Shown here piece by piece: positions 3,001-50,739 of a DNA stretch of 64,000 nt. A program made the position numbers and the translations under genes. This DNA is from Paraspadella gotoi. Its lineage: Eukaryota > Animalia > Chaetognatha. The notes below the pieces were generated by a model. That model did not search any database and was not told where the DNA came from. It was given only the letters and a program-made list of their open reading frames with translations. Numbering within the stretch: the first letter of the stretch is position 1; each line of letters starts with the position of its first letter. The stretch lies in assembly GCA_051294375.1 (NCBI GenBank), contig JBJCIZ010000028.1:868437-932436 (forward strand), in the 5' to 3' direction.

Positions 3001-5618
3001 GGTTCGCTACCCTCCCGACGAGCCTTACATCACCCTAGAGGATTCCCAGTGGTTTTACGAGGGCACCGTGCTTGCCTTAGGTGGGAACTATTATTCTCTT
3101 AGTACCTTTTAAAGTTTTAATATGTCAGTTTGTGTTTATCTATTTATTTATTTCCTTAGGGTGCACTGTAGCGGATCGCGGATTTCCGCCAGCGACGATC
3201 CGTCTCACTTTTCCAAACTCGCGCTCCGTCGAGACCAAGACGGACTCCGTCGTACACAATAGCTTTAGACTCAGTCCCGTCTACGACCAAGAGAAGGCGA
3301 GTGGCAGTTTAAATATAATGTATTGAAATCTTAAGCTACTTCTCTCTCTAAAATAACAATTCCAAAATGAAATGTTTAAAACTAAACGATTATTTCACTA
3401 TGTTAAAAGTCATTGAAAATTGTAATTTAAAATTCCCAAGAAAAGAGAATTAAAAAAAAAAAAAACCGAGAAATCGTCTAAACTGCTACAATATGCAAAT
3501 GAGATTGAGAGAATTATTTCTTTGCTACTTAAGCAATTAGTGTATCTCTTAATATTCCAGGTGATTTGCGAAGCCGTCTCCCCGGCGAAGGAATTGATTC
3601 GACGACAGGAGAAGACGCTCAAAGTCGCATTCGGTCCCGACGCCGTCGAGATATTCACGGGAGGTCGCGAGGTTTTGTTTGGAAAAGGTAAGTCAACTCA
3701 AAAGTGATTGTGTGCCGGTATATTCACACCACCATCGTTCAGCCAATCCCAATGGGCATCACAGGCAACCCGGCTGTTGCCATATTTGATTGTCTGAACA
3801 GATAGTGAAAGCCCCCATTTTTTATTAGCCGAATTTCATTATGAGATGTATTACGATAGAGGAAAATAGAAAACTCTTAACGATTATAGTATTACTATGA
3901 ATTTGGTACAACCAATATGAGAGAGATTAAATCTCATTTAAGAAATCAATCTCGTACAATGTTATCCTAATTTTCATCCGCAATTCTCCCTCTTCCAAAG
4001 TCGACGCGATCGCCGGCCAACTACTCTCGCTCAACTGCCTCCCTCGCGCCGTCAACCCCGAGGCGGAAATCCATTGGTCCGGCGCCGGAAGCGAGACGCG
4101 CATCGTTAACGAGACTCGCCTCTTGGTAACGCCCACTTGGCGCCAAAACGGCGCCGTCATTCGGTGTCTAGGAAGGAATCCGTATTACTACGGGGTAAGT
4201 CCCAATCTGGTTACCTTATCCTGTTTCTAAATATTCAAAACTAACATTATGCTATTACCTAAATATGCAACTGAAATTCAAATTCTGTATTAACTTTTTT
4301 CGTTCTTATTATTGAATATATTCCACACTTTTCAGATTCCTGACAAAGACGTCAAAGCCTTCGTGACGCTCAACGTTCTCCACAAGCCCGTCTGGAACGC
4401 GTCGAATACCGATCAGGTGAGAGAACCTTCGGAGATTAAGATCAAACGTTGCTTTTTAAATAACGTGGTTCTTATGTTTGTTCCCCCCCCTTTAATTTCT
4501 CCGTTTCAGTCCGTTGTCAAGTCCGCGGGACAGGAGGCGCTGTTAACTTGCGGCGTGACGGCGAATCCCGACGCAGATCTCAAATACTATTGGCAATTCG
4601 ACGGAAAACATCGGGGCATGACGAGAGAAATCAAAGTGAATCGATGGATTTTTGAGTATTTTTAAACGATAAACTCTGGGATTTTTTAAACTAGACTGAT
4701 AAACTCTTTGTTAAAAGCTTGCAATGCGAGCTGCGTGGTCACTTGGTCAGGGAAGAAGGCTTTAAACCCACAATAACCTGTTCATAGTCACTGACTAAAA
4801 TTATTCGATGAACAAGATATCTTGCCAACCTGACTATTAGTCAGGTTGGCAAGATGTCTTGTTCATCGAATAATTTTTATAGCAGTTGTACCAATTTTAA
4901 TAGTCATATGTCAACTGCTTCTCAGTCCAACTCTTTATTATTGCTTCTTGTGCCACTCTCACTTCATTCCTTCCTTCTCTTTCAACTCACCATCCCCTTA
5001 AAATCCCACCCCTCCCCTTAAAGGTCCGCGCCTCGGCCTCCACCTTCGGCGCCTACACCTGCGTCGCCACCAACTCAATCGGCTCCGCTTCCTTCTCCGT
5101 CTCTCTCATCGACGCCGATGTCGTCGCCGCGGCGGCTGCGGCGACGGAGCGGCTCGTCGTCGGCGTCGTCGTCGCCGCGCTGCTGCTGATCGTCGTCGTC
5201 GTCCTTCTCGTTTGTTGGTCTCGAAGGAGGAAGAGTTTGAGGGAGAAGGAAGAAGGTCGAGTTATTTTAACCCGTTAACCATACGATTATAGAATCCATT
5301 GAATCGTTGAATATTCATTTATTTACGATTACAGAGGCGTTNNNNNNNNNNCGAGCCATTCCCGAGATTCACGAAGACTTTTTCCGCTTCGGTCCGTCGT
5401 CCCCCGCCGCTGCGGCAGCCGCCGCGGCAGTCGCCGCCGCCGACGCGGCATCGCGGAACGACGACGCTTACGACGACGACACGCCGCCCAACGCGTCGAC
5501 GCCGAAGAAAGGAAGGGAAGACTGGATGGAAAGAAAAGATCTCTTGGTCGGAGGGGAGAAGGAAGAGGAAGAGGAAAACGCCAACAACCCCTTCACTCCC
5601 TCGCGGCAGAGATTGTGA
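1..5618 (+). CDS. Multi-Ig-domain type I transmembrane adhesion protein (nephrin/Kirrel/CADM-like), 5' partial
   Basis: Phase-consistent exons <1-175, 259-402, 480-692, 2928-3080, 3160-3296, 3561-3687, 4001-4194, 4336-4416, 4510-4635, 5024-5255, 5335-5618. Repeated Ig motifs (GHFKCEV; VSLACSVDAFPRPSIAW; LLTCGVTANP..YYWQF; FGAYTCVATNSIG), then TM helix LVVGVVVAALLLIVVVVLLVCW followed by SRRRK. N-gap in the last exon. Confidence 0.85.
728..2513. mobile_element. Non-autonomous long-TIR (foldback-like) DNA element with telomere-like CCCTAA core, in Ig-gene intron
   Basis: ~728-1215 is an imperfect inverted repeat of ~1950-2513 (gtttcttgtgccaa / ttggcacaagaaac; aaatagaactgtctaagggat / atcccttagagagttctattt). 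Termini are TA|GAGGTCCC ... GGGAGCTC|TA. The interior has ccctaaccctaa arrays and no transposase ORF. Confidence 0.8.
4797..4877. repeat. Near-perfect 40-bp-arm palindrome (hairpin) in intron
   Basis: aaaattattcgatgaacaagatatcttgccaacctgacta-t-tagtcaggttggcaagatgtcttgttcatcgaataatttt; one G:T mismatch, 1-nt loop. Confidence 0.95.
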
Positions 5619-48800: not shown

Positions 48801-50739
48801 CGGAGTAATTCAATGAGATTGAGCCTCATAAGCTCATTTTCATATCGTAGTATTTACAATAATTCCAGATACGTTTTGATTCGGCTTTCTTAGAAGGTTT
48901 ATTTAACAATTTTACCTACGCTTTTCATAAGTTTCAATAATGATTTAATTTTCCAAATAATGTTTATATATTTCATATTAGTATTGTAGCTTGACAAATT
49001 ACTTTTGTTTCCTCATCCCACTCAGCCTCGGCCGAAACGCCCACCTCTCGTCGTTCCTTCTTCTCTCGGTCTTGGCTCGAAAACTGGTTCCGTCGTCGCC
49101 CCTCCTTCGACGTCGTCAAGGAGAAAGGTGGATTGGGTGGGGGGGGGCTTTTTATTGGAGTTTAAGGGGAGAGCGGGATGTGGTATTGACTTGAAATGTA
49201 AATAGGAAATAAGTAATGGAAATGAAAAAGAAAAATAAAACGCAAAGCGAAAGAGTTTATATTTTTGTTTTGCGATGCTCAGTCTTAAATTACTAACTTG
49301 AAATAGAAAAAAAAAACAACCTTATTGACATAATTACGAAGATATCCTCGTCATTTCTATTTATTTTATTTTATTTAATCATTATTTCTTCAGGTTTGAT
49401 CAAATCTCGACTCGTATTCGGCGCGAGCATCGAGGAATTGGCGGAGAGAGAGAAGAACTCTGTCCCGGTGAGAGCGTCGTCGTCGTTGTTGTTGTTGTTT
49501 GCCGGAGTTGTTGTGGAACTTATTGAATGCACGTCGAGTCGTCTATACCGAACGGCCTCTTTCCGTTTACTGCCTCTTAAAGACTGGCGACAATAATTTC
49601 GCGTGATCTGTATAAAAGAAAATGGGTTTAATATTAATTAAGGTAAAAAATAAACATTTAAATTAATTAGGATTTGAACTAATGCTTCATTAAAAAAGTT
49701 ACAAAGGGCAGTTTAAGTGATCCCTCGATAAATCAAACATTGTCATCTCTTATATGAAATTAGTAATTTTATTCTTGTTTCCTCTTAACGACGCAGTCTT
49801 TCGTCAGCCGCTGCATCGCGGCTCTGGAGCGGCGCGGCGCCCTCGGCGTCGACGGCGTCTTCCGCATCAACGGAAACAACGCCGAGATCCACAAACTCCG
49901 CTTCCTCGTGGACGAAGGCGACGCCGCCTACGATCTGCTCGACCCCAAGTGGGACGTCCACACGCTCACAGGATCTCTCAAGCTCTTTTTCAGGTCGGTG
50001 GAGGGGAATCAAGGGATAAATTGATCTATTGTTGTATCGTATTATTGATTTTTGTTCATTTTGTTTTGTTAATTATGATTATTCTCTCTCTCCCCTCTCA
50101 CTCTCTCTCTCCCCCTCCCCCACAGGGAATTGCAAAAGCCTCTGATCCCCTGGGAGTGTTTCGAGTCAGCGCTGGAGGTTCTTCGTCGTCAAGGCGACTC
50201 CGACCGCAAAAGTCAAAAGCTTTGAAATCCATTTTCGAAAAGTAAGAGTCTCTTGATTTGGTTTCCTCGCCGTAAGTCTTCTAACGGTTTCGCTCTCTCC
50301 TCTCTCTCTCTCTTCTCTCTCTCTCTCTCTCTCTCTCTCTCTCTCTCCTCTCTCTCTCTCTTTTCTCTTCTCTCTCTCTCTCTCTCTCTTCTCTCTGTCT
50401 CTCTTCTCTCTCTCTCTCTCTCTCTTCTCTCTCTCTCTTTCTCTCTTTCTCTTTTTCTCTCTCTCTCTCTTTCCCTCCAGGAGCATGCCCTCCGCCTCTC
50501 GTGCCACCCTCGTCGCCCTCTGTCGCCACTTGGACAAAGTGGTGGCGCTCAAGTCGGAGAACCGCATGCAAGCGTCGAACCTGGCCATCTGCTTCGGCCC
50601 TACACTCATTTGGCCGCCTGACACGGGCGGCTCCGCCGGCGGCGGCGGCGGCGCCTCCATCGCCATCAACATGATGTATCAGTCGCAGATCGTCGAGTTT
50701 CTTCTTCTCAACTGCGATCAAGTTTTCGGCAAAGAGTGA
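42856..50739 (+). CDS. SH3-WW-WW-PH-RhoGAP protein (ARHGAP9/12/15/27 family)
   Basis: Exons 42856-43134, 44529-45824, 46175-46624, 46872-47198, 47698-47832, 48137-48260, 48385-48485, 48555-48651, 49026-49127, 49394-49467, 49797-49993, 50126-50241, 50481-50739. SH3 VRVLYDYEY..DVWWRV..FYVPANYVEE; WW PLPPGWTKEFD and WMCERDASGRPYYF..SRWRLP; PH VLKKGWLNY..KNWTK; GAP VFGASIEEL..GVFRINGN..DVHTLTGSLKLFFREL..NRMQASNLAICFGPTL. Confidence 0.93.

Follow-up and report, generated by a model that had tools for sequence, protein, structure and literature searches.

A junction-anchored C/G skew at the exon-intron borders of twelve genes in Paraspadella gotoi

A 64,000-nucleotide (nt) stretch of genomic DNA from the chaetognath Paraspadella gotoi (contig JBJCIZ010000028.1, positions 868,437 to 932,436; hereafter the window) carries a C-versus-G skew at its exon-intron borders, with C in excess around acceptors and G in excess around donors. 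The skew is tied to each junction and is reset at each exon; it is neither exon-centred nor gene-wide. Hand annotation gave 12 genes, all on the plus strand, with 90 exons and 78 introns, and the counts below refer to this one window and these genes. An initial annotation had proposed that GC skew flips across exons, from C-rich at the acceptor to G-rich at the donor, synonymous codons included. This was partly confirmed: the feature is real but narrower than claimed, being general in intron flanks and visible in exons only above about 170 nt.

Skew in intron flanks and along exons

In successive 20-nt bins upstream of the acceptors of the 78 introns, GC skew was -0.67, -0.41, -0.16 and -0.11, and in the corresponding bins after their donors it was +0.40, +0.33, +0.16 and +0.06, so that the skew of the intron flanks fades by 60-80 nt. 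The last 50 nt of the intron held more C than G in 68 of 78 cases (the opposite in 5), and the first 50 nt more G than C in 56 of 78 (the opposite in 20). The C/G bias of intron flanks is a general signal in the window. For comparison with other animals, introns of one of the genes were called in 76 metagenome loci, of which 43 yielded one or more introns and 18, all distinct, two or more. The flip in skew, taken as the 5′ minus the 3′ value, was 0.73 here and lay between -0.38 and +0.44 (median +0.02) in all 18 control loci, a rough control with 2-7, often short, introns per locus and no close genomic relative among the 76. The skew is neither confined to intron ends nor of usual amplitude, as it would be with an ordinary polypyrimidine tract and intronic G-runs: it reached at least 150 nt into exons, and the flip was above that of 18 of 18 control loci. 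Judged by the single gene that could be compared, other animals have a weaker skew.

Within exons, the trend at four-fold degenerate sites was tested by permuting codons only within the same codon box and the same exon. The G-C trend along exons was significant overall (z=4.8) and without a coiled-coil gene, gene F (z=2.3), and it depended on exon length (z=6.6 above 400 nt, 3.3 at 171-400 nt and -2.2 at 170 nt or less). With amino acids controlled, the trend held overall but not in the shorter exons. In six conserved enzyme genes z was -0.7. The same permutation test gave no trend along exons in A-T (z=0.4) or in GC content (z=0.4). Slopes could be computed for 66 of the 67 internal exons. 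The synonymous C-to-G slope was positive in 21 of 23 internal exons longer than 170 nt, from 9 genes (15 of 17 without gene F), and in only 21 of 43 shorter ones. A half-versus-half comparison at four-fold sites went up in 29 of 61 exons and down in 31, with one tie. Since neither the short-exon slopes nor the half-versus-half test shows a trend, a typical exon, at the median length of 153 nt, does not show the C-to-G flip.

The proposed switch from CGC, GCC and CTC to AGG, GCG and TTG codons was seen directly in exons longer than 170 nt. From the first to the last third of these exons CGC fell from 51 to 10 and AGG rose from 5 to 37, CTC fell from 40 to 24 and TTG rose from 11 to 26, GCC fell from 55 to 25 and GCG rose from 36 to 58, and ACC fell from 25 to 5 and ACG rose from 9 to 27. 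The gain in purines toward the 3′ end was a gain of G and hardly of A. The effect of position held with neighbouring amino acids controlled (t=10.9, with codons that are not independent). All four exons that had been singled out are open reading frames with AG/GT ends, and they are four of the five steepest among the 66: an internal exon of an Ig-domain gene at 5024..5255 (232 nt, slope +1.54) and three exons of gene F, at 33030..33580 (551 nt, slope +1.36, with a G-rich flank past its donor), 33911..34115 (205 nt, slope +1.77, the steepest of all) and 35888..36505 (618 nt, slope +1.19). Two further steep exons had gone uncited, one in a BTB gene at 20807..21173 (367 nt, slope +1.11, with an assembly base missing at 20975) and one in a RhoGAP gene at 46175..46624 (450 nt, slope +1.07). 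All six lie on the plus strand.

The exon pattern was described by two arms, one per junction. The C arm extends from about -60 to +150-200 nt around the acceptor, and the weaker G arm from about +60 nt past the donor back 150-300 nt into the exon. Codon residuals were +0.08 far from both junctions, +0.25 near a donor only, -0.22 near an acceptor only and -0.09 near both; without gene F the values were -0.02, +0.12, -0.28 and -0.13, and additivity was equally good within gene F and without it. Bootstrapping over exons gave an acceptor arm of -0.24 [-0.35,-0.12], a donor arm of +0.22 [0.09,0.33] and an interaction of -0.04 [-0.17,0.10]. The best acceptor reach was 150 nt in 105 of 150 resamples, or about 150-175 nt overall. 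Short exons look flat and long exons graded because the two arms add and largely cancel in short exons, and with these reaches exons of the median length come out flat and uniformly C-biased. Last exons also carried the C arm after their acceptor (-0.36).

The C- and G-runs cited by the initial annotation, all on the plus strand, were correctly assigned to splice sites. All six C-runs end at the AG of an annotated acceptor: the C-rich tract at 11272..11296 in the 5′-nucleotidase gene, the C-run at 12306..12316 and the C-run at 24249..24260 in the EF-hand gene precede acceptors seen in spliced contigs, the C-rich tract at 22010..22067 precedes the last exon of the BTB gene, the C-run at 41438..41457 precedes an AAG acceptor, and the C-rich tract at 48360..48384 an acceptor of the RhoGAP gene. 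All seven G-runs lie 3′ of an annotated donor. The run at 712..722 starts 19 nt after the donor GT at 693, and donors with their G-runs occupy 17323..17356 and 20670..20700 in the BTB gene (the latter had been cited one base early, at 20669), 34335..34351 and 37353..37368 in gene F, and 47199..47240 and 49128..49148 in the RhoGAP gene.

Mirror symmetry and candidate causes

The two ends of introns are approximate mirror images on opposite strands. Frequencies of 3-mers at one end correlated with those of their reverse complements at the other (r=0.79), and for dinucleotides corrected for base composition the correlation was r=0.85 with the reverse complement versus r=0.52 with the same word. 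The exon arms were approximately mirrored as well (C 0.36 and G 0.27 versus C 0.23 and G 0.37). An octamer-like motif of 14-22 nt (consensus ACTGCAATATGCAAATGAGATT) had been said to share this symmetry, and indeed it does. Its 17 copies in the window (0.29 expected) include those at 35405-35418, 53033-53046 and 61579-61592; 16 of the 17 lie in annotated introns, 11 forward and 5 reverse. Forward copies fell in the 3′ half of the intron in 10 of 11 cases and reverse copies in the 5′ half in 5 of 5 (Fisher p=0.0014), as with the forward copy at 35844..35857 (plus strand), 30 nt before an acceptor, and the reverse copy at 32627..32640 (minus strand), 50 nt after a donor. As DNA the oriented motif is a single element, but in RNA it gives two distinct words. 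Paired terminal repeats of introns were rejected as a description of it, no intron having both orientations. The skew had further been pictured as a dyad-symmetric wave with the exon at its centre. Reverse-complement mirroring was upheld, but the skew is junction-anchored and aperiodic, with unequal arms, and an exon-centred wave was rejected because intron skew peaks at the boundary in every exon length class.

With slightly less than even confidence, we propose that a strand-mirrored substitution bias, acting on DNA where AT-rich intron chromatin meets GC-rich exon chromatin, makes the junction skew. Each exon-intron border would carry its own C-versus-G bias, C around acceptors and G around donors, and the two would sum inside exons. 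The border would be a chromatin boundary, the intron being nucleosome-poor and the first ~150 nt of the exon lying under a positioned nucleosome; on either strand, DNA read from intron into exon would gain C and lose G. Damage, repair or polymerase hand-over are candidate molecular steps, and the peaks in introns would be made sharper by ordinary splice signals. A chromatin-linked cause is likely, the chromatin step being one that we infer. The mirroring of intron ends and the oriented motif favour a DNA-level cause over selection by splicing factors. Over the first 40 nt past stop codons, where no donor is annotated, G was also in excess (130 G to 75 C over 11 genes). This too counted toward a DNA-level cause, although the excess came mostly from 4 of the 11 genes and bases were counted as if independent. 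The same polarity at the gene ends of fungi, seen at four-fold sites with A/T flat, likewise agrees with this reading (PMC3315797). G-rich sequence without an annotated donor occurs on the plus strand in a G-run at 5619..5650, directly 3′ of a stop codon, and in a stretch of 3′ untranslated region (UTR) at 22626..22745, within one RNA contig (22067-22764). Other GC-rich islands outside annotated exons showed the pattern in 18 of 26 cases (p=0.08), several of them probably being unannotated exons or repeats. A fuller version, in which an oriented intronic DNA element and a chromatin border at each junction would impose a mirrored exchange between C and G about one nucleosome deep, is rather unlikely as a whole; such a bias would rewrite synonymous codons, shift amino-acid choice along long exons, and stamp exon architecture on the double strand independently of transcription direction.

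Several observations weigh against additive arms made by a mirrored bias on DNA. The peaks of the skew sit exactly where splicing factors bind. A model with forced mirroring was 10 log units worse than a free model at four-fold sites, the A/T skew was not mirrored, and the polarity of poly(A)/poly(T) in introns was not robust (p 0.45, 0.049, 0.78). Junction spacings showed no phasing at 140-230 nt, AA/TT no 10-bp period and the skew no periodic autocorrelation. The best donor reach was unstable, at 150 or 300 nt, and the donor arm without gene F was +0.15 [-0.23,0.37], an interval that spans zero. Stop codons were not preceded by a G arm (-0.04, 6 exons), and the C arm after the ATG was weak (-0.12, 4 exons). 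In introns the additive model fitted no better than a nearest-junction model (-5023 versus -5022), and a model with length-scaled amplitude reached -5016 in introns and tied with the additive one in exons. Because the length-scaled model fits and longer exons have stronger flanks (rho 0.35, n=133), addition cannot be told apart fully from scaling. A simple nucleosome-dyad signature was also tried and fails, with no gradient in nucleosome-sized exons (170 nt or less) and no periodicity.

Selection for RNA splicing signals is quite possible as the cause, though we lean away from it. C-rich tracts and exonic elements near acceptors would bind poly(C)-binding proteins, and G-runs and purine enhancers near donors hnRNP F/H and SR proteins. 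This would help weak splice sites to be recognised, more strongly so where exons are long, perhaps in connection with trans-splicing, as proposed for Caenorhabditis. The position of the skew peaks next to splice sites, the rise of flank strength with exon length, the C arm after last-exon acceptors with no G arm before stops, the unequal arms and the unmirrored A/T skew all agree with it, as does the length-scaled model, which was best overall (-6641 versus -6648). Donors were degenerate at position +3 (A16 C9 G34 T19 over 78 donors, nearly unconstrained) and 2 of 78 were GC, and all 12 genes lie on one strand. In mammals, alphaCP on C-rich tracts enhances acceptors (PMC4797308), and in nematodes the two ends of exons are antisymmetric, with purines of like polarity (PMC2374712). 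Splicing selection by itself, however, predicts neither the reverse-complement mirroring of dinucleotides and motif nor a reach of 150-300 nt, decoy splice sites were not depleted relative to synonymous shuffles (small counts), and the match of donors to U1 was unrelated to G content. The last result (rho -0.10 and 0.03) also disposes of the suggestion that the runs compensate for weak splice sites. As general background, the activity of G-runs depends on donor strength.

It is improbable that the exon gradient arises secondarily from proteins of low complexity and weak constraint (with Pro/Ser-rich starts, Glu/Arg-rich ends and slippage) together with a single coiled-coil gene, only the intron flanks being general. 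Long exons were poorer in hydrophobic residues (rho -0.43), gene F had an effect of its own (t=2.1), the conserved enzyme genes lacked the four-fold trend and the donor arm was uncertain without gene F. Set against this, the slope stayed positive in most long exons outside gene F, as given above, and in 5 of 6 long exons resembling folded domains; length stayed significant (t=3.7) where hydrophobicity did not (t=-0.9); and the acceptor arm was -0.25 to -0.28 whichever gene was dropped. Pairing of G- and C-runs as RNA, which would join the ends of introns or of long exons as in the GGG/CCC- and AC/GT-bridged introns of vertebrates, is very unlikely. By composition the two ends of an intron are complementary, and they pair somewhat more stably than pieces from mid-intron do (-16.0 versus -13.6 kcal/mol); strong duplexes are predicted for a few introns (-40 kcal/mol at 17323). 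Yet in a folding test of 61 introns cognate ends (-15.97 kcal/mol) paired no better than non-cognate ends (-16.22 kcal/mol, p=0.64) or shuffled ends (-16.26 kcal/mol). The strengths of G at the 5′ end and C at the 3′ end were uncorrelated (rho 0.03 within introns, -0.01 across exons), GGG and CCC triplets co-occurred within one intron in 0 of 78 cases (2.0 expected), and of 21 long exons only 10 folded better than their synonymous shuffles. The pairing of intron ends, another mechanism suggested by the initial annotation, is thus not supported and is largely refuted in the window.

Gene set and other features of the window

Among the 78 annotated introns 76 are GT-AG and 2 are GC-AG (at 3297 and 7206, the latter agreeing with a contig joint). 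All 15 listed joints of spliced contigs between 5400 and 25300 agree with the annotation, 13 more joints lying outside that list; the contigs come from one public sequencing run that is not recorded as RNA. Junctions beyond 5400-25300 are placed by reading frame and splice dinucleotides rather than by reads. An automatic caller given foreign proteins recovered 7 of 12 introns of the 5′-nucleotidase gene exactly. Reading frames of the 12 genes were intact once three single-base breaks in coding exons (20975, about 41523 and about 50221) had been filled with N. These breaks are likely assembly errors; the one at 20975 was seen as an inserted base in an RNA contig. Pfam matches were above cut-off for 5′-nucleotidase, BTB, RhoGAP and PITP and below it for Ig and EF-hand, and the remaining gene labels are what we take the translations to represent. 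Two 5′-nucleotidase proteins were 94-95% identical over the query exon, and one of these close relatives shares 61-66% identity with arthropod, nemertean and mollusc proteins and 50% with a coral protein. The counts exclude UTR exons, a duplicated segment at 28.2-31.6 kb, a gene of uncertain status at 54.4-55.9 kb and the last exon of the Ig gene (5335-5618), which contains N and entered the after-stop count only.

Coding exons have a GC content of about 58-60% and introns of about 33-36%. The ratio of observed to expected CpG was 1.35 in exons (over-represented) and 0.98 in introns (no depletion), which suggests little decay through CpG methylation. The 12 genes are co-oriented, some with short spacers between them, and long CT repeats stand ahead of some likely first exons or acceptors (for example 23150-23218 and 42270-42345); together these make an operon-like layout, with trans-splicing as a possibility. 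A near-identical tandem duplicate (about 24470-28200 and 28240-31640), with N gaps at its bounds, holds the last exon of the EF-hand gene and is likely an assembly artefact. Just 3′ of the RhoGAP gene, a repetitive stretch at 50868-51254 is open on both strands (128 amino acids on the plus strand, 107 on the minus strand), and its minus-strand frame had no Pfam match. A further spliced plus-strand gene is probable at 54460-55920, with a donor near 54668 and exons near 55391-55527 and 55625-55728. Short intronic repeats at about 7430-7540, 17510-17890 and 25170-25270 had very high contig depth (bins up to about 12,000) and are abundant dispersed elements.

Relation to known asymmetries and implications

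The skew in the window, described here from 12 genes, is a variant of known exon-end and gene-end asymmetries, which are compared below as far as the available text of each paper goes. In Caenorhabditis (Warnecke et al. 2008; PMC2374712) exon ends are antisymmetric, purine-rich codons being disfavoured at 5′ ends and favoured at 3′ ends, and this was ascribed to trans-splicing. In the window, too, codon usage changes in opposite directions toward the 5′ and 3′ ends of exons and the 3′ end is purine-rich, and its co-oriented genes are a further likeness. It differs in that C and G are exchanged at four-fold sites while A/T stays flat, in that this exchange runs on into mirrored intron flanks and extends at least 150 nt, and in having acceptors without a strong fixed consensus. 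No named nematode was among the best 120 matches of either 5′-nucleotidase search. Ectocarpus (Wu et al. 2013; PMC3787667) shows the same antisymmetry of C and G at four-fold sites of exon ends but with the opposite polarity, its 5′ ends avoiding C and its 3′ ends G. Unicellular fungi (McLean and Tirosh 2011; PMC3315797) have opposite GC skews at the 5′ and 3′ ends of genes, with a C-biased start and a G-biased end that include four-fold sites, extend into the flanks and leave A/T nearly flat. Their unit, however, is the gene, whereas the skew in the window starts anew with each exon; that paper makes no use of the word exon.

Human introns carry G triplets at 5′ ends and C triplets at 3′ ends that co-occur four times above chance (Lin et al. 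2016; PMC4691745), a likeness in the placement of triplets. In the window, by contrast, the triplets did not co-occur, an intron's own ends were not more stable and the bias continues into exons. Likewise, in its accessible part, a study by Ke and Chasin reports no complementarity among co-occurring cross-exon motifs (PMC2945786). Yeast nucleosomal signatures (Quintales et al. 2015; PMC4422121) are palindromic in composition, override codon choice and occur in coding and non-coding DNA. The reverse-complement composition is shared, approximately and with unequal arms, but the yeast signature is dyad-centred, about 150 bp long, periodic and mostly A/T, whereas that of the window is junction-anchored, aperiodic and confined to C/G. 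The exact pattern was not found in the literature searched, whose coverage left most subscription journals and supplements outside; nearest to it is a review that, in the part of its text available, touches in a general way on asymmetry between the strands at splice sites (PMC10030826).

When codon choice is biased close to the ends of exons, selection for splicing enhancers is the usual reading. Where C and G trade places in mirror image at each junction, in additive arms whose reach can be measured, mutation can be tested directly against splicing selection. If the skew reflects only stronger splicing signals, it would be a lineage-specific splicing code of moderate interest. Junction skew may also link the gene-end skew of fungi and the exon-end antisymmetry of nematodes to one cause.

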